A DNA stretch of 64,000 nt, from contig CM075990.1 of assembly GCA_038087875.1 (NCBI GenBank), positions 16,618,001 through 16,682,000 of the forward strand, in the 5' to 3' direction. This DNA is from Malacoraja senta. Its lineage: Eukaryota. Under the pieces are notes generated by a model that worked only from the letters and a program-made list of their open reading frames with translations, was not told where the DNA came from and did no database searches. Both the position numbers and the translations under genes were made by a program. Below, one piece after another: positions 5,587 through 36,278 of the stretch (positions are counted from its first letter, which is position 1; every line of letters begins with the position of its first letter).

Positions 5587-8142
5587 ATAGAAACATAGAA
5601 ATTAGGTGCAGGAGTAGGCCATTCGGCCCTTCGAGCCTGCACCGCCATTCAATATGATCATGGCTGATCATCCAACTCAGTATCCCGTACCTGCCTTCTC
5701 TCCATACCTCCTGATACCTTTAGCCACAAGGGCCACATCTAACTCCCTCTTAAATATAGCCAATGAACTGGCCTCAACTACCTTCTGTGGCAGAGAATTC
5801 CAGAAATTCACCACTCTCTGTGTGAAAAATGTTTTTCTTATCTCGGTCCTAAAAGACTTCCCCCTTATCCTTAAGCTGTGACCCCTTGTCCTGGACTTCC
5901 CCAACATCGGGAGCAATCTTCCTGCATCTAGCCTGTCCAACCCCTTAAGAATTTTGTAAGTTTCTATAAGAACCCCTCTCAATCCTAAATTCTAGAGAGT
6001 ATAAACCAAGTCTATCCAGTCTTTCTTCATAAGACAGTCCTGACATCCCAGGAATCAGTCTGGTGAACCTTCTCTGCACTCCCTCTATGGCAATAATGTC
6101 CTTCCTCAGATTTGGAGACCAAAACTGTACGCAATACTCCAGGTGTGGTCTCACCAAGACCCTGTACAACTGCAGTAGAACCTCCCTGCTCCTATACTCA
6201 AATCCTTTTGCTATGAAAGCTAACATACCATTCGCTTTCTTCACTGCCTGCTGCACCTGCATGCCTACTTTCAATGACTGGTGTACCATGACACCCAGGT
6301 CTCGCTGCATCTCCCCTTTTCCTAGTCGGCCACCATTTAGATAATAGTCTGCTTTCCTGTTTTTGCCACCAAAATGGATAACCTCACATTTATCCACATT
6401 ATACTGCATCTGCCAAACATTTGCCCACTCACCCAGCCTATCCAAATCACCTTGCAGTCTCCTAGCATCCTCCTCACAGCTAACACTGCCCCCCAGCTTC
6501 GTGTCATCCGCAAACTTGGAGATATTGCCTTCAATTCCCTCATCCAGATCATTAATATATATTGTAAATAGCTGGGGTCCCAGCACTGAGCCTTGCGGTA
6601 CCCCACTAGTCACTGCCTGCCATTGTGAAAAGGACCCGTTTATTCCTACTCTTTGCTTCCTGTTTGCCAGCCAGTTCTCTATCCACATCAATACTGAACC
6701 CCAAATGCCATGTGCTTTAAGTTTGTATACTAATCTCTTATGTGGGACCTTGTCGAAAGCCTTCTGGAAGTCCAGTTACACCACATCCACTGGTTCTCCC
6801 CTATCCACGCTACTAGTTACATCCTCGAAAAATTCTATCAGATTCGTCAGACATGATTTACCTTTCGTAAATCCATGCTGACTTTGTCCAATGATTTCAT
6901 CACTTTCCAAATGTGCTGCTATCCCATCTTTAATAACTGACTCTAGCAGTTTCCCCACTACCGATGTTAGACTAACTGGTCTGTAATTCCCCGTTTTCTC
7001 TCTCCCTCCCTTCTTGAAAAGTGGGGTTACGTTTGCTACCCGCCAATCCTCAGGAACTACTCCAGAATCTAAAGAGTTTTGAAAGATTATTACTAATGCA
7101 TCCACTATTTCTGGAGCTACTTCCTTAAGTACTCTGGGATGCAGCCTATCTGGCCCTGGGGATTTATCGGCCTTTAATCCATTCAATGTACCCAACACCA
7201 CTTCCCCACTAACCTGGATTTCACTCAATTCCTCCAACTCCTTTGACCCGCGGTCCCCTGCTATTTCCGGCAGATTATTTATGTCTTCCTTAGTGAAGAC
7301 GGAACCAAAGTAGTTATTCAATTGGTCCGCCATATCCTTGTTGCCCATGATCAACTCACCTGTTTCTGACTGCAAGGGACCTACATTTGTTTTAACTAAT
7401 CTCTTTCTTTTCACATATCTATAAAAACTTTTGCAGTCAGTTTTTATGTTCTCTGCCAGTTTTCTTTCATAATCTATTTTTCCTTTCCTAATTAAGCCGT
7501 TTGTCCTCCTATGCTGGTCTCTGAATTTCTCCCAGTCCTCCGGTATGCTGCTTTTTCTGGCTAATTTGTGTGCATCATCCTTCGCTTTGATACCATCCCT
7601 GATTTCCCTTGTTATCCACGGATGCACTACCTTCCCTGATTTATTCTTTTGCCAAACTGGGATGAACAATTTTTGTAGTTCATCCATGCAGTCTTTAAAT
7701 GTCTTCCATTGCATATCCACCGTCAATCCTTTTAGAATTAATTGCCAGTCAATCTTGGCCAATTCACGTCTCATACCCTCAAAGTTACCTTTCTTTACGT
7801 TCAGAACCATTGTTTCTGAATTAACAATGTCACTCTCCATCCTAATGAAGAACTCAATCATATTATGGTCACTCTTGCCCAAGGGGGCACGTACAACAAG
7901 ACTGCTAACTAACCCTTCCTCATTACTCAATACCCAGTCTAAAATAGCCTGCTCTCTCGTTGGTTCCTCTACATGTTGATTTAGATAACTATCCCGCATA
8001 CATTCCAAGAAATCCTCTTCCTCAGCACCCCTGCCAATTTGATTCACCCAATCTATATGTAGATTGAAGTCACCCATTATAACTGTTTTGCCTTTGTCGC
8101 ACGCATTTCTAATTTCCTGTTTGATGCCATCCCCAACTTCAC
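5587..8142 (-). mobile_element. 5'-truncated HER1-type CR1 LINE: partial APE endonuclease plus RT, broken by a stop/frameshifts
   Basis: ORFs 6776-8161 (GDFN, LDWVL, SDH, KSPGPD, NYRPVSLTS, QHGF), 5945-6691 (GVPQGSVLGP, FADD) and 5677-5982; (TTTCTATG)-type tail. Confidence 0.95.
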
Positions 8143-8693
8143 TAGTTGGATATGGTATCAAACAGATGGGAGCATGGATGTGTAGGAAGGAACTGCAGAT
8201 ACTGGTTTAAACTAAAGTTAGACATAAAATGCTGGAGTAACTCGGGATAGGCAGCTTCTCTCGATAGAAAGATTGGGTGACATTTCGGGACGAGACCCTT
8301 CTTCAGACGCAAGGATAACTGTTCTCATACAGACAGAAAATAGACAATAGGTGCAGGAGAAGGCCCTTCAAGCCATTCAATGTGATCATGGCTGATCATC
8401 CACAATCAGCACCCTGTTCCTGCCTTCTCCCCATATGCTGGCTGCCTTTTTGAGGCAGCGAGTCCTGTCAATCCCTTCAATGGTGGGGAGGTCGGTACCC
8501 CTGATGGACCGGGCAGTGTCCACCACGCTTTGCAAGTAGTTGCTTCCGCATTTTCTTATCCTTTTGGTTTGCTTGCAGCCGTTGATTAATATTGATGTCC
8601 AGGGTATACCAAGCCATTCCTGGAGTCCTGGCTGCCTTTTGGAGTTCCCGCTGCAAGAAGTCTGATACCTGAACTACACTGGCTGTGGGCAGT

Positions 8694-8829: not shown

Positions 8830-9160
8830 CCAGAGAGTCATGCAATCATACAGCAAGAAAACACGCATTTTGGCTCAACTTGTCCAAGCCATCCAAGATG
8901 CCCCATCATCCCACATGCCAGAGTTTGCCCCATATCTCTCTCAACCTTTCCTACCTGTTCAAGTGTCTTTCAACTGTTGTTCTAGTACCTGCCTCAACTA
9001 CCTCCTCTGGCAGCTTGTTCCATACACCCACCACCCTCTGCGTGAAAAAAAATGCCCCTCGGGTTGCTATCAAATCGTTCTCTCTAACCTTAAACCTATG
9101 CCCTCTGGTTCTGGTTTCCCTTACCAGGAGAAAAAGACTGTGCATTCACCCTATCTACAT
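8830..9160 (-). mobile_element. CR1 3' fragment
   Basis: TRTRGHRFKV..FFTQRVVGVWNKLPEEVVEA. Confidence 0.8.
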
Positions 9161-12566: not shown

Positions 12567-13105
12567 TGTGTGCTTTTGCGCAGAGCGTGCGTGTGTGTTC
12601 ATGTGTGTGTATGTGCATGTGTGTGTATGCCCGTGTGTGTATGTGTATGTGTGTGCGTATGTGTGTGTGGTGTGTTTGTATATATGTGTGTGTGTGTGCG
12701 AGAGCGTATGTGTGTGCGTGTGCATGTGTGTGTGTGTGTGCATGTGTGTGTGTGTGCATGTGTGTGTGTGCATGTGTGTGTGTGCATGTGTGTGTGTGCA
12801 TGTGTGTGTGTGCGTGAGCGTGTGTGCATGTGTGTGTGTGTGTATGTGTGCGTGTGCATGTGTGTGTGTATATGTGTGCATGTGTGTGTGTGTATGTTTG
12901 TGCACGTGTGTGCATGCGTGTATGTGTGGTGTGTTTGTATATATGTGTGTGTGTGTGTATGTTTGTGTGCATGTGTGTGTGGTGTGTTTGTATATATGTG
13001 TGTGTGTGTGTGCGCGGGCGTGTGTGCATGTGTGTGTGTGCGCGTGTGTGTGTTTGTGTGGTGTTTGTGTATGTGTGTGCGTGCGAATGTGTGTGTGGTG
13101 TGTGT
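12567..13105. repeat. Degenerate (TG)n microsatellite
   Basis: Seen directly. Confidence 0.95.
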
Positions 13106-15115
13106 ACAGTTTAGTTTATTGTCACGTGTACCAAGGTACAGTGAAAAGCTTTTATTGAGTGCTATCCTGTCAGTGGAAAGATTATATATGATTATAATCA
13201 AGCCATTTACAGGTATACTCAAAATGCTGGAGTAACTCAGCTGGTTAGGGAGCATCCCTGGAGAGAAGGGATGAGCGAGGTTTCGGGTCAAGACGCTTCT
13301 TCAGACGAAGAAGGGTCTCGACCCGAAACGTCCCCATTCCTTCTCTCCAGAGATGCTGCCTCACCAGCTGAGTTACTCCAGCATTTTGTGTCTCCCTTCG
13401 ATTTAAACCAGCATCTGCAGTTCTTTCTTACACAAGCCATTTAAAGTGTATCGATACATGATAAGCGAATAACTTTAATGCAAGGTAAAGTCCGATCAAA
13501 GATAGACCTCTCTGTGATTGATCTTTGTGTTTGTGGTGTGCGTGTGTCAGTGTGTGTGTCTGATCAGTTTAGTTTAGTTTATTGTCACGTGTACCGAGGT
13601 ACAGTGAAAAGCTTTTGTTGCGTGCTATCAGGTCAGTGGAAAGACAATACATGATTAAACCCCTGTCTCACGGTGCGAGCTGACCCACGAGGTACCCAGA
13701 GCTTAAAACAAATTTAACTCGTGGTAATCACGTACGATTAACGTAGCGGGAACGTCGGAACTCGTGGACGCAACTTAGCGACTCTTGGCACTAACAGCAG
13801 GTACCCGTGAAACTTGTTAACTCTTGGAAAAATTCAAACATGTTTAAACTTTTCCACGAATAAAATGTATTCTTGAGGTTAAAATTTGAAACATTTAAAC
13901 ACGTAAGAACGCAGTGGCCCGTGCGATTACCTTAGTGACTCGTGAGTCTACCGTGGGCACTCTTTAACTCAGCAGGCAGGCAGCATCTCTGGAGAGAAGG
14001 AATGGGTGATGGGATGACATTTCCAAATTTGGGGGGGAGTGGGTGGTTGGAGGAGGGAGGGGGGGGGTGGAGGAGAGAGGGTGGAGAGTGGAGGGAGAGG
14101 AGGGGGAGACAGATGGGGGTGTCTTCATTCACTAGCGGCTGGTGCCGGTCACTGAAACAGGCAGGTGAGATTTCACATCCACCTTGTGTGTGTGTGTCTC
14201 TCTCTCCCTCCCTGCCTCTCACACAGGCTGAGAGACTCTGCCTCTGTGAGTGTACGTCTCTTTCTCCCCCTCTCCCACACACAGTAAGACCGAGGTAAGT
14301 CCATCTGTGTAAGTCCATCTGTGTCTCCCACATACACAGTAAAACTCTGCTTTTGTATATACGTCTCCCCCCATTTCTCTCTTCCCCCCCCCACCTCTCT
14401 CTTTCTCCCCCACACACAATAAGACCAATGTATTCTGCTTAGTCTCTCTTCCCTCCCACACACACAGATAGACTGAGGTCCTGTGCGCTCTTTCTCTCTC
14501 CCCCACAGTCACGCCGAAGTACACCACACTGCCTCTGTGCCTCTCTCTCTCTGTCTCTCTCCCCCTCTCTCCTTCATACACAGTCAGAGGTCCACACTGC
14601 CTCTGTGCCTCTCTCTCTGTGTCTCTCTTCCCCTCTCTCCTTCATACACAGTCAGAGGTCCACACTGTCTCTGTGTCTCTCTCTCCCCTACACACACACA
14701 CAGACTGAGGTACACACTGCCCGTTGTGTGTGTGTGTCTGCCTCTGTCTCTCTCTCCCACACACACAGTTAAAGGTACTCCACGCTGCCTGTGTGTGTGT
14801 GTGTGTGTCTCTCTCTCTCTGTCCCACCCCCCACACCCACACACAGTCAGTCAGTCAGAGGAACTCCACACTGTGTGTGTGTGTGTGTGTGTGTGTGCGC
14901 CTCTGTCTCTCCCTTTCACAGTCAGAGTGAGGAACTCCCCCCGCAGTCTCTCCGCGGCCTCTCCCCGGGCAGGGTGCATCTGCCTCCCTCAGGCTGCCCA
15001 GGCAGTCAAACACGACTCCGGTGGCGGGCTCCATGCACAGCTCCTGCCGGCCGGCTGGGAGCGGCGACGGAGGACAGGGGGAAGTTGGCCACCAGCGGGG
15101 CAGTCTCGGCTCTCC

Positions 15116-16317
15116 ATGCAGTCCGAGTCTCGCTGGATCCTCGTAATCCTCTGCCTCTGTCAAATCAAGTCAAGTCACATTTATTTATATAGCACATTTA
15201 AAAAACAACTCTCGTTGGCCAAAGTGCTTTACATTTGTTATAAGAATAGCATAAACAAAACAAACTACATACATATATACATGTAGCCCTCACTCAGAGG
15301 ACGTCAGGAAAGGCTTGGGAGTATAGATAAGTCTTTAGTCTTGACTTAAAAGAGTCGATGGAGGGAGCAGTTCTGATGGGAAAGGGGATGCTGTTCCACA
15401 GTCATGGGGCTGCAACCGCAAAGGCCCGGTCGCCCCTGAGCTTATGCCTAGACCGTGGGATATTCAGCAACCCCAAGTCGGCCGATCTGAGGGGCCTGGA
15501 GGTGGAGTGGTGGGTGAGAAGACTTTTTATGTAGGTGGGGGCAAGCCCATTGAGGGCTTTGTAGACATGGAGGAGGATCTTGAAGTTTATACGGAACCGC
15601 ACAGGGAGCCAGTGGAGAGAGGCCAGGATTGGGGTGATGTGGTCCCTTTTTCGGGTGCCCGTCAGGAGTCTCGCTACGGCGTTTTGGACCAGTTGCAGGC
15701 GGGACAGGGAAGATTGGCTGATGCCAGTGTAAAGGGATTGCAGTAATCTAGGCGGGAGGAGATGAATGTGTGGATGATCTTTTCCAGGTCATCAAACTGG
15801 AGGAATTGTTTTATTTTAGCTATCGTCCGAAGCTGAAAGAAGCTAGCTTTTACCACGGCATTGACTTGTTTGTCAAATTTCAGTGCTGAGTCAAATATCA
15901 CGCCAAGGTTTTTGACATGAGGTTTGAGTAGTGGGGTAAGGCTTCCAAGGCTGCCTGCTATCATTTTGATTGAGTCCGAGGGGCCGAGAAGGATGACCTC
16001 AGACTTACTCTCGTTTAGTTGGAGGAAGTTCTGGGCCATCCAACACTTTATATCCTCGAGGCAGCGGGTAAGGTTAAACAGATTTGATTGGTTTTTGGGC
16101 TTCAGGGGGAGATAGAGTTGTGTATCGTCTGCGTAGCAATGGAAGGAAATGCCGTGCCTTTCAATGACTTGGCCTAAGGGGAGCATATACAGGGAGAAGA
16201 GAATGGGGCCAAGGATGGAACCTTGTGGAACCCCACAGCACAGATTAGCTGGGGAGGAGAATGAGTTGCCTATGTTAGTCGAGAAACTCCTACCTTTGAG
16301 GTAGGAGATGGGTGAGT
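15116..16317 (+). pseudogene. Possible captured signal-peptide first exon (MQSESRWILVILCLCQEM-G|GTGAGT) split by an L2 insertion
   Basis: Removing the L2 gives 55 coding nt ending at a GTGAGT donor (16312); GC-rich leader upstream. Confidence 0.4.
15161..16309 (-). mobile_element. 5'-truncated L2 LINE (RT C-terminal half and 3' tail)
   Basis: SYL.GR..GVPQGSILGPILFSLYM..YADDTQLY..SRLDYCN; LPVRFRI.FK-like and GDRAFAVAAP motifs; AATAAA plus (GACTT/GATTT) tail. Confidence 0.92.
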
Positions 16318-17786
16318 TTAACCTGACCCCCCAACCTCCCTCCACCTCAACTCACGCCTGGGCACCAAAGCAGCTCAGGAGGCGAACCCTGAGCTCCGTC
16401 TCCCAACAATCTGATGTGCGCATCCGTCCACATTCAAATATTTAATCTCCAGTCTCCCCGCAGTGTGTAGACCTGGCAGTAAATTCAATTAAAATATAGC
16501 AAACCTCCGCCTGCTGGTCTTCTAACTACGTGATGTGTGTTTCAAACAAATCATCAGTATAACTGCCCTGGCACTGGACGGTGCGCATTTTCCCTTTGTA
16601 GGTCACATAAATAGATGCGGCTGCGCTGAATTCTATCTTTAACTCAAAGCCGCAGGATGGAGATGTTGCTTATTAAAACAGACCTTCATTGAAGGTTGGC
16701 TCAAGAGTAACTCGGGAAAGGAACTTGTTAACTCGGGAGACGAACTTGGAACATCGCAGAAATGACAGTTAACGGCAAACTTGAGTCATACCCGTGGGAA
16801 CTCGGTTAAACCCTTGATCATACACTTGGAATCTCGTGCACAACCACGAGTCTTTCGCTCGGGGTACCTCGTGGGTCAACTCGCACCGTGAGACAGGGCT
16901 ATTACAATCGAGCCATTCACAGTGTATAGATACACGATAAGGGAATAACGTTTAGTGCAAGGTAAAGCCAGCAAAGTCCGATCAAAGATAGTCCTCTCTG
17001 TGTGTGTGCGTACGTGCACAAACGCTGTTATGCAATTACATTAATAATTGTGCACAAACTTTCAGGAGAAGATTGAAGCCAAGAATGGAAAAAAATACTT
17101 ACTAACAAAATCTGCCATTTATTTTTGCACTGCGCTTTATTTAAATAAAAGGTGATGACTATATATGTCTTCCTTTGTATCAGCTCATACATTGAAATGT
17201 CAAATGGCTTATTCAGTGTCTACCATTGAGGGACAATAGACTTACTTCACTGCAGGGCAATATTTAAATAACATCAATTATAATAATACTCTAAATCTTA
17301 AATTGCTTATATCACTGTACTCTATCACTGTGGTTTCAGTAATTGCTTAATTTTATCTTTGCGCTAATTATGAGGCATGATCAGAGTCTTGGAAGTTTAT
17401 AATGACTATTGTCTTTTATGGGTATGTTGTACATAGCGAGGAGGTGACAATACAGAGGATCCGGATTAAATAATGACTTTTCTTGTTGGTCACTTGATTA
17501 CAGACATTGAGAATACAGCTGATCTTAATCTGTGAAGGAATTAGTAAATTGCCAGTAAATTCTGTGAGTAAGCCGTGGGACCAATTTAGCGATTGTTCAG
17601 CTTCATGCAGTAGGTTTTGTAAAACACAGCGTCTCAGATAATCAGCTTGTTCTCCATTCCTGTGCTGTTTCATGGGCAGAGTGTGAGCAATGGCGCAGGG
17701 GCTGCCACTAGGGGACTGTAGGGCTCCATAACAAACACTGACAAACAAAAGACAATTCCCCTCATGCTGTCCAATGTTGTCGTGGA

Positions 17787-22302
<4,516 letters not shown>

Positions 22303-22761
22303 CTGAATTTCCAAATTGAAGAGCAATATACAATCAAAGAATGAAATACAATTGTCTTTAATTTCTGTTGAATAGTGACTTTAAATGTGTGCTTGGGAAA
22401 TCAGAGCTTTTTCATTGTGAGTGATTTCTGCACAAACAAATGGCATTAACTGATTCAATTTATGTTAAGTAAAATGCGCCATATGCTGCTTTAGCAGACT
22501 TTGACATGTAAGTAAAAATTGATCTCTGCCTAATGAATAATGCAAGGCCATTTTCCTCTTAATGCATAATGTTCTGTGGTCTGCCAGTGTATTCGTGTTT
22601 ATTAAGAAATCACCGCAATGCTTTTAAAGAAATGTGGTCTAATGACAAGGAATAATATGCTGTTTGCAAATGAATCCGAGCAATCTTCTCATTTGAAATC
22701 AGGTTTAAATTTGAATTTCACAGTTCAAAATGCCATCCGATTAGATGCCAACACAAGGTGA

Positions 22762-27876: not shown

Positions 27877-28405
<529 letters not shown>

Positions 28406-32043: not shown

Positions 32044-34059
32044 CCTCTATACACTGTGAATGGCTCGATTGTAATCATGTATTGTCTTTCCACTGACTGG
32101 TTAGCACGCAACAAAAGCTTGTCACTGTACCTCGGTGCACGTGACAATAAACTAAACTGAAGCTGTTCCTGAGTCTGGTGGTGTGTCCTTTCAAATATAT
32201 ACAAAACAAAAATCGTTCAACAAACGTATACATTTTTAGTGTCTGTACATTCAATGGTGTGATCCTCATTATTGTTCGCACCTGTCTTTACACAAAACAC
32301 TCTTGCCTCTGGTGTTAAAGGGGAGGAGGCTGACAATGCAGCCATTCCATCTGCAGTTGTGAAGCCATGATATCGCGTGGCCGGGCTCCTTGATCAGCAT
32401 CCACAGTCTCCGCGCGACGAACAAGGCTCTGCTCCAGGGTTAAACTCAGCTGAAGAAACAGGTCAGTTTGTAAAAGAAAAGGAAAACAAGCGAGCCATAT
32501 CCACAACAGCGACGCGTTCAAAGCCCCCTATTATTTGGCTCTCAGTCAGTAAGACAAGCCACAGGGTGTTGATTAAATATTCTGCATTGTAATTTATGCA
32601 AAAACAAAATCCCAACAGGCATCAACGACTTGGCAAAATCTGTCGTGAAATAATTGTCCCCCCTATCAGGATAACAGCAGTCTGCGAGGTGTCTGTCAAT
32701 AAAATATTGGACAACAGCATCGTGTTCAATTACACCTTTCAAGCTAATGTGTTTTCTTCACTAGATAAGGCTGGTACGCAGTGCTTACTGACTGACACCA
32801 GAACACAACCTCCACTCATTTAGTGCTTCACAGTACAGACTCCGTGCTCTGGGGGCTTTCTAGATGTTATTATTCACAGCGAGTTAGGCAAGAGATTTTA
32901 ATGAGGACCAGTCTCATTTGAAAATCTGCGTTTTGGTTATTGATTATAGGACGGCAGCAAGCCCAGGCGAAACCAGGCGTCTCTGCACAAACCTGGATTT
33001 GCTGGACGCATTTTTTTTTTTAACGTTGATCAGTTTTTGCAAGCACAACCCATGTATAATATGTTACACTTGTCCACAATTAACCACTCTTCAGAGAAAG
33101 GAAAACAGCCCATTATTCAGTTAGCCACAGTTAACCTCAGTGAAGGCTCCATCATTGTTGTTTATCTTGTGTCATGAGTGGAGTTGAGATAATGATGAGC
33201 TGCGATGCCACTGAATAATGCTTTGGCTATTGGGCTGAACGACTGACTCCCTGGTCTTATCACTCGGCCCAGTTTCTGTTTGTAACTCTCGGAGATGCAA
33301 GAGACTGCAGCTGCAGGAATCTTGGGCAAAATACAAAGTGCTGGAGGAACTCAATGGGTCAGGCAGCACCTGTGGAGGGAAATGGACAGGCGCTATTCTA
33401 GTTTGAAGTTTAGAGATACAGCATGGAAACAGAGCCTTCGGCCCACTGAGTCCATGCAGACCATCGATCACTCCTTCTCATGAGTTCTATGTTATCCCAC
33501 TTTCTCATCCACTCCCTACACATGGGGCAATTTACAGAGGTCAATTAGGTAGAAGATTGGACTTTTTTGCCTTCCATCACAGTGAGGAATGTGGGGATTC
33601 CGCTGTGGTGGATGTTTATGTTGACTTTTATGTAGTGGTGTGTCTTGTTGCTTTTTTTTCATATGGCTGTATGGTAATTTGCATATCACTGTGCCTTTAT
33701 TGGTACACGTGACAATAAAAGACCTTTGAAACCTACAAACCCGCACGTCTTTGGGGTGTGGGAGGAAACCGGAGCAATGAGGTAGGTTGGTCGATTGTAA
33801 CTACACCCTAGTTTATGGGAGAACTGTTCAGGTCTCATAACAGAAGAGAGAAGCTGTTCCAGAGTTCCTCATTGTCGAAATAACGTTTTTTCTGATAATA
33901 TAGAGGTTACAGAACATAACTGCCAAATGGAAACAAATCTCATTGCGGACATTGGACTTTTTCTGCGGAACTGTAACTCTACATTGCTGAAAACCTATGT
34001 TCTTCACTCTTTTTCTATTTTTCTCTTCACTCTATCCCCTCTACTAATATACGGCTAGG

Positions 34060-36057: not shown

Positions 36058-36278
36058 AGGGCCTGTCCCACTTGCCGATTTTTTTCGGCGACTGCTGGCA
36101 TCATAACAGGGTCGCCAAAAGATTTTGAGCATTTCAAAATCCGGCGGCGACAAAAAAAAATGTTGCGACACTTGAAAAAACCCCATCGCGCGTCAATACG
36201 TCACATCTCGCCTCAAATTTTTCGGTGTCCTGATATGTCAGTCAATGATGCCAGCAATCGCCAAGTGGGACAGGCCCT
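36058..36278. mobile_element. Harbinger-type MITE inserted in an HE1-type SINE
   Basis: Perfect 17-bp TIR AGGGCCTGTCCCACTTG; TAA TSD at 36055-57 and 36279-81. Confidence 0.9.

Follow-up and report, generated by a model that had tools for sequence, protein, structure and literature searches.

The question raised by this locus is whether a Harbinger-like transposon copy of 3244 bp (13658-16901; about 2.1 kb without the LINE that it contains) carries a captured piece of a host gene, as a preliminary description of the DNA proposed, or whether its interior belongs to the transposon family itself. The element lies in a 64-kb stretch of DNA that was analysed as a whole and is called here the window. 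We favour the second answer, at roughly four chances in five: the element would be a single member of a non-autonomous PIF/Harbinger-type family that is abundant in the genome, and its non-coding interior would be family sequence.

The element is genuine and correctly bounded. As had been described, TIRs and a TTA duplication enclose it: the inverted arms (13661-13709 and 16850-16898) extend over 49 nt at 90% complementarity, with mismatches at positions 1 and 3 of the outermost bases, and the TTA is exact on both sides, the empty paralogous site having one TTA. The flanks also rejoin into one repeat, since, joined by a single TTA, they align without gaps to an intact host-repeat copy that lies on the minus strand at about 32046-32161. 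The element was inserted at a TTA inside this older short repeat, and the TTA was duplicated. Six matches to the left half of the host repeat, itself included, are present in the window. A joint that skips 3247 bases (the element and one TSD) occurred in all four public sequencing runs compared; these joints are most likely paralogous copies of the host repeat rather than the orthologous site. The contigs of organisms B and D stop at 16981 and 16946, respectively, within the host repeat. The features of the locus are collected in Table 1.

Table 1. Coordinates of the element, its parts, the interrupted host repeat and the related MITEs, given as positions in the window.
Feature	Position	Strand	Evidence
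Interrupted host repeat, left half; abundant short interspersed repeat ending in the left TSD	13568..13657	+	93% identical to the intact copy 32072-32161
Left TSD, TTA	13655..13657		Sequence; intact paralogue with a single TTA
Whole non-autonomous PIF/Harbinger-type element	13658..16901		TIRs, TSD, joint skipping 3247 bases in all four runs
Left TIR	13658..13709	+	49 nt, 90% complementary to the right arm
Left subterminal region, in common with the MITEs at 46469 and 45741; many ACTCG/CTCGT motifs	13662..13860	+	73.7% in 198 aligned columns (46469) and 77.3% in 163 (45741)
Fragment (46 nt) of a short repeat that is very abundant	13965..14010	+	56 matches in the window; loose ends of other copies diverge on both sides
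G-rich tract	14020..14130		62% GC, no CpG; array of 20-nt period at 14035-14108
Degenerate CT/CA-rich minisatellite, about 750 bp, units 41-80 nt apart	14180..14934		38-nt core repeated 12 times; 68-nt unit repeated 2.4 times at 95%
GC-rich segment, 231 bp (the proposed cargo); high-copy repeat	14930..15160		68% GC, CpG o/e 0.63
5'-truncated LINE, RT end in two overlapping frames	15160..16307, +/- few bases	-	RVT_1 E 2.3e-15; ORFs 15674-16351 and 15402-15788
Non-coding interior, about 390 bp (proposed as unique sequence); high-copy repeat	16308..16700		Stops in 6 of 6 frames; depth
Right subterminal region with right TIR (16850-16901)	16700..16901		ACTCG density; about 18,000x flank depth in organism A
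Right TSD, TTA	16902..16904		Sequence
Interrupted host repeat, right half	16905..17002	+	30/30 identical to 32046-32075; alignments
Related MITE, 329 bp, inverted; right-side TSD unmatched	45741..46069		85.7% to the MITE at 46469
Related MITE, 302 bp, TTA on either side	46469..46770		Sequence comparison

Sequence comparison relates the ends of the element to short MITEs of the window. The left end, whose first 200 bp or so had been called homologous to the MITE at 46469, aligned with it at a score of 170.5 against a maximum of 39 among shuffled sequences, and on the right side the two have only the TIR in common. Short relatives with similar termini were found at 36058, 45741 and 46469, two of them with matching TWA duplications (TAA/TAA at 36058 and TTA/TTA at 46469) and the one at 45741 with no match. 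The ACTCG motif reaches 24.8 per kb in 16700-16901 versus 0.9 in the window as a whole. The left end of the element is joined to other flanks in the contigs of all three contig runs (X1, X3 and X5); together with the MITEs of the window, these contigs present the same ends in different flanks, as in a dispersed family. The 25-mer of the TIR had no exact match in metagenome contigs. The TIRs, the 3-bp TWA duplication and the related MITEs support the attribution to Harbinger made in the preliminary description, and the family may already be catalogued in repeat databases.

The interior holds the G-rich tract and the CT/CA-rich repeats that had been reported, at the positions given in Table 1. 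The 46-nt piece of a short repeat at 13965-14010, which we take to be SINE-like, had been overlooked. The reverse transcriptase domain, together with the 5' truncation and a short-repeat 3' tail at about 15160-15178, identifies a LINE insert, although it has no clear TSD, and depth declines toward its 5' end. A LINE had been rightly recognized; its naming as L2 rather than another LINE clade relies on sequence motifs, and on that ground we take the insert to be probably of L2 type. The segment that had been described as rich in CpG is indeed rich in GC, but its CpG content is unremarkable: its observed/expected ratio is lower than that of the element's own ends (1.09-1.38) and of the MITEs (1.3-1.4), and 36 of the 276 window tiles of 231 nt reach both GC>=0.5 and o/e>=0.6, with many such tiles falling in one CA/CG-type simple repeat.

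One arrangement in the interior deserves attention in relation to a possible capture. On the plus strand, CAG sites near 14922 and 14946 resemble acceptors and the GTGAGT at 16312 resembles a donor; when the LINE is removed the GC-rich segment falls between these acceptor-like and donor-like sites, a pattern noticed post hoc. This layout would suit an old capture followed by amplification, in which an ancestral Harbinger MITE took up a genuine host exon, splice sites included, or a 5' region (the GC-rich segment at 14930-15160 with its flanking minisatellite), the chimera multiplied to several thousand copies within a single fish lineage and the parental locus survives free of TIRs. The confinement of the likeness with short MITEs to the element ends agrees with such a history, whereas the exon-like layout fits a Myb-like gene of the element itself equally well. 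In addition, multicopy Pack-TIRs account for four cases (1.4%) in the part of a 100-genome survey drawn on here (PMC8277862). We consider this history, the exon capture included, unlikely.

The copy number of the interior carries most weight in this question. Four of 22 public sequencing runs were compared with the element at 80% likeness. The share of sampled words was 0.77 and 0.70 in the two runs of organism A and 0.35-0.48 in the DNA-sized runs of organisms B-E; the depth comparison covered organisms A, B and D, the runs of C and E having shares of 0.17-0.47. Depth was referred to the single-copy flank 17045-17740, where it was 24-28 in X1, 47-63 in X3 and 36-47 in X5; over 16966-17740 the X1 flank contig differs from the window by one gap and no other letter. 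The values that follow are orders of magnitude only, as summed contig depth is not copy number, overlap among contigs can inflate it, some repeats are skipped and some differences uncounted. As a rough calibration, the host repeat, with six copies in 64 kb, gives 216,178x, which would imply a genome of 2.3 Gb, a plausible size.

In organism A the GC-rich segment reached 6,440x flank depth at 15015-15159 and 2,839x at 14870-15014 (a bin lying partly inside a skipped repeat), and the stretch that had been called unique reached 5,932x at 16320-16464 and 5,316x at 16465-16609. The minisatellite stretch 14290-14724 stood at 1,300-2,400x, and depth climbed toward the element ends (11,598x, 18,256x and 32,134x, the last at 13710-13854). 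The bin 14725-14869 was empty in all runs because the repeat there was skipped in the read comparison. Point depth may fall in places below the bin means, as at 16512 (2,924x in A, 78x in B and 12x in D). A lower bound free of overlap can also be given: the depth of 153,248 at 15009 is distributed over 32 contigs, and therefore a single contig must have a mean depth of no less than 196x the flank. Organism A thus contains hundreds of copies at the least, and probably thousands, of both candidate cargo segments. At the scale of the calibration 0.17 further copies of the interior are expected in the window, where none was seen. The uniqueness claimed for 16310-16700 accordingly stands within the 64-kb window, which holds no second copy, but not genome-wide, where read depth makes it a high-copy repeat; sequence unique in a window of this size may be a repeat with thousands of copies.

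The same segments were followed in organisms B and D. Over the GC-rich segment depth was far lower than in A, at 16x and 20x (14870-15014) and 35x and 25x (15015-15159) in B and D, respectively, a rarity that favours an old capture. At 15046, however, ten variant contigs were found in B (36x in total) and seven in D (14x in total), and therefore the segment is multi-copy rather than single-copy in both relatives, which speaks against that history. The bins at 16320-16464 and 16465-16609 reached 704x and 1,016x in B and 400x and 203x in D. A diverged X1 contig, 92% identical over 14937-15079 and at about 5x flank depth, also counts in favour of an old capture. The base at 15009 is A in the window, as in most of the depth of B and D, and G in all X1 depth; therefore the copy studied does not simply reproduce the amplified consensus, a point against the family reading. 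No RNA run was listed as carrying the element; an RNA run from organism D, of which about 6% was read, had near-zero depth over the GC-rich segment and is uninformative for organism A.

These depths bear on two other readings. According to the preliminary description, the interior is a one-off Pack-type transduplication of the 5' region of a single-copy host gene, for which its GC-richness and the want of a second copy in the 64-kb window could be adduced. Because the candidate segments are repeated hundreds- to thousands-fold, this cargo reading is unsupported: at least about 200 copies, probably thousands, in A and multiple copies in each of two relatives contradict a one-off capture, the CpG content is unremarkable, and neither a coding homologue nor a parental copy in the window came to light. 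We regard it as very improbable. Alternatively, the copy could be a composite with Harbinger ends, into which at least one unrelated repeat, either satellite-like or from another transposon, landed or was copied. The depth in B and D is indeed uneven between parts of the interior (3,825x and 1,099x at 14145-14289; 24x and 32x at 14435-14579), and the LINE and the short-repeat fragment are already foreign. Nevertheless, interior depth in organism A stays within one order (1,300-6,400x) to the left and right of the LINE, with a smooth rise toward either end of the element, and an inverted-repeat search of the element revealed no inner TIR or TSD pair that would delimit a nested element, so that a composite origin also seems improbable to us. 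Against the family reading, no contig among the runs compared linked a copy of the interior to a TIR, and the 15 joints listed (908 more went unlisted) include none that spans the LINE from about 15159 to 16308.

The searches for coding content complete the picture. As previously stated, no transposase was detected inside: a six-frame Pfam search of all parts outside the LINE revealed no transposase, Myb or MADF domain and no match exceeding a curated cut-off, in conditions under which a control transposase (L009) was recognized as DDE_Tnp_4 (E 2.2e-30), and a transposase profile gave no significant match. This profile was built from 54 Harbinger-type ORFs out of 116 metagenome loci, gathered by what we take to be the Harbinger motif inside an ORF of 150 aa or more, one of them being confirmed as DDE_Tnp_4, and its members may be distant from the transposases of the family studied. 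By these two means the interior could not be aligned with any autonomous Harbinger at a significant level, so that its derivation from one is a supposition, and the element encodes no detectable transposase or Myb/MADF protein. A candidate transposase remnant near 16565-16600 on the plus strand, resembling the Harbinger motif, was rejected, as the 54-ORF profile was silent there (hmmsearch and tblastn) and a frameshift-aware alignment gave 19.9 bits, above 60 of 60 shuffles but below two of 45 control segments of the window. In viral contigs the transposase motif was found 0 and 0 times.

As for a host origin, no protein homologue of the GC-rich segment was obtained with four of its six frames in large protein collections, weak evidence against an old capture; UTR or promoter DNA would escape such searches. 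A host or Myb exon at 14930-15160 had no match among 463, 335 and 356 candidates and none among 1.84 billion representatives, and no usable Atlas match was available for the segment. None of the six interior pieces outside the CA arrays has a parental copy within the window. The sub-threshold Pfam matches to DUF6525 (E 0.0015), LRV_FeS (E 2), AmpE, Fam20C and Papilloma_E5 were judged to be chance, and so were those to CoV_NSP2_N (E 2.8e-4; a translated simple repeat), to the aldolase AgaY (E 0.0012; a frame full of stops) and three Rfam matches far under the gathering score.

We therefore return to the reading of the element as a member of an abundant non-autonomous family, whose interior, the LINE excepted, recurs hundreds- to thousands-fold in organism A and has multiple copies in two relatives. 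Its other copies would sit between the same TIRs in a unit of about 2.1 kb, which most simply would consist of the non-coding remains of a longer ancestral element with accreted simple repeats and the short-repeat fragment, and an L2-type LINE would have nested in this family interior. An autonomous partner elsewhere may supply the transposase and a Myb-like protein, which would mobilise it in trans through binding to the motif-rich subterminal arms. The family probably predates the split of organisms A, B and D, with a burst in the lineage of A. The repeats of the window resemble what would be expected in a skate or ray genome. Among the publications listed for Harbingers in skates or cartilaginous fish none dealt with this family.

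The TSD of MULEs is longer than 3 bp. A likeness to rice Pack-MULEs had been proposed in that both are TIR elements with a GC-rich interior (PMC8277862, as far as the sections used here go); unlike them, the element studied contains no identified gene fragment, belongs to another superfamily and has a 3-bp TWA duplication. Pack-TIRs of animals are closer. In the sections of the survey used, they are defined by an unambiguous TE-free parental copy, nearly all are single-copy, with four multicopy cases (PMC8277862), and 21 rows are PIF-Harbinger Pack-TIRs from two clawed frogs and the American alligator (PMC8277862, Supplementary Data 1); capture by vertebrate Harbingers is therefore already known. 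Like them, the element has TIR ends enclosing 100-5,000 bp of interior sequence to which the short family member shows no match; unlike them, its interior is high-copy and so is not low-copy, non-TE host sequence. As found, it adds one lineage-amplified non-autonomous Harbinger-type family, which matters little. If its interior derived from a host gene, the case would be important, since captured exons are documented to have been amplified en masse by plant Pack-MULEs, whereas in the vertebrate survey (PMC8277862, as far as its sections used here go) such amplification was rare and low-copy; such a Pack-TIR family would stand orders of magnitude above the multicopy vertebrate cases surveyed and would spread a ready-made exon through introns.

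Among PIF/Harbinger elements the comparison is straightforward. TIRs of 25-50 bp and 3-bp TSDs are given for the superfamily in the part of the source used (PMC9179366), and the arms of 49 nt at 90% fall within that range. Autonomous or solo-ORF members code for a transposase and/or a Myb/MADF protein, and no such coding region was detected in the element studied. In Harbinger-1M_cIno, from what the portion of that source drawn on describes, the target is TWA and the family ranges from 180 to 2,752 bp through internal deletion (bioRxiv 10.64898/2026.05.26.728016), and the TTA on both sides of our element conforms to this target. In sea kraits, Harbinger-Snek has non-coding and single-ORF variants in a vertebrate burst (PMC8437027, in the portion used). 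Unlike these two, the element studied has no recognisable transposase or MADF remnant, and its interior includes a minisatellite and a nested LINE; like them, it combines TIRs, a TWA duplication, the absence of an intact coding region, short MITE relatives and a lineage-biased expansion.

The centre of the minisatellite (14497-14593), a degenerate CT/CA-rich array inside the non-autonomous PIF/Harbinger-type element at 13658-16901, was found in a shorter variant in organism B, one of the relatives compared with the window. Since this variant was recovered as one contig at a depth of 1,243, about 23 times that of B's flank, it suggests a small young subfamily in that organism. The flank at 17045-17740 is single-copy and about 95% conserved in organism B and in a further relative, organism D, and it received zero reads in the one RNA run of organism D, of which about 6% was read.

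Short MITEs with related ends also occur in the window (table). As for the copy at 36058-36278, its terminal type is the same as that of the element, and its interior is unrelated to the element's left arm (the left subterminal region). The two members of the MITE pair are 85.7% alike, both with a CpG o/e of 1.3-1.4, and the right side of the 45741-46069 copy showed no matching TSD.

Repeats and other features of the window
Feature	Position	Description
MITE	36058-36278	221 bp; AGGGCCTGTCCCAC termini; TAA duplication
MITE pair	45741-46069, 46469-46770	opposite orientations; 400 bp between them
Inverted-repeat unit	13211-13397	short; arms 63 nt, 89%
CA-type array	17788-22303	degenerate; 4.5 kb; extreme strand skew
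Additional arrays	12587-13105, 27884-28400	
Tandem array	42243-42890	66 nt x 9.9
Tandem array	44763-44965	52 nt x 3.9, 98%
LINE remnant	5945-8206 (-)	endonuclease and RT domains
LINE 3' fragments	near 9094, 40403, 56094	
Assembly gap	52904-53103	200 bases of N

The inverted-repeat unit is an insertion within another copy of the host repeat, the abundant short interspersed repeat interrupted by the element, and a short stretch is duplicated around it, near 13199 and 13433. The 66-nt tandem array is made of the separate SINE-like abundant short repeat. The domains of the LINE remnant, which we take to be CR1-like, are spread over two frames.
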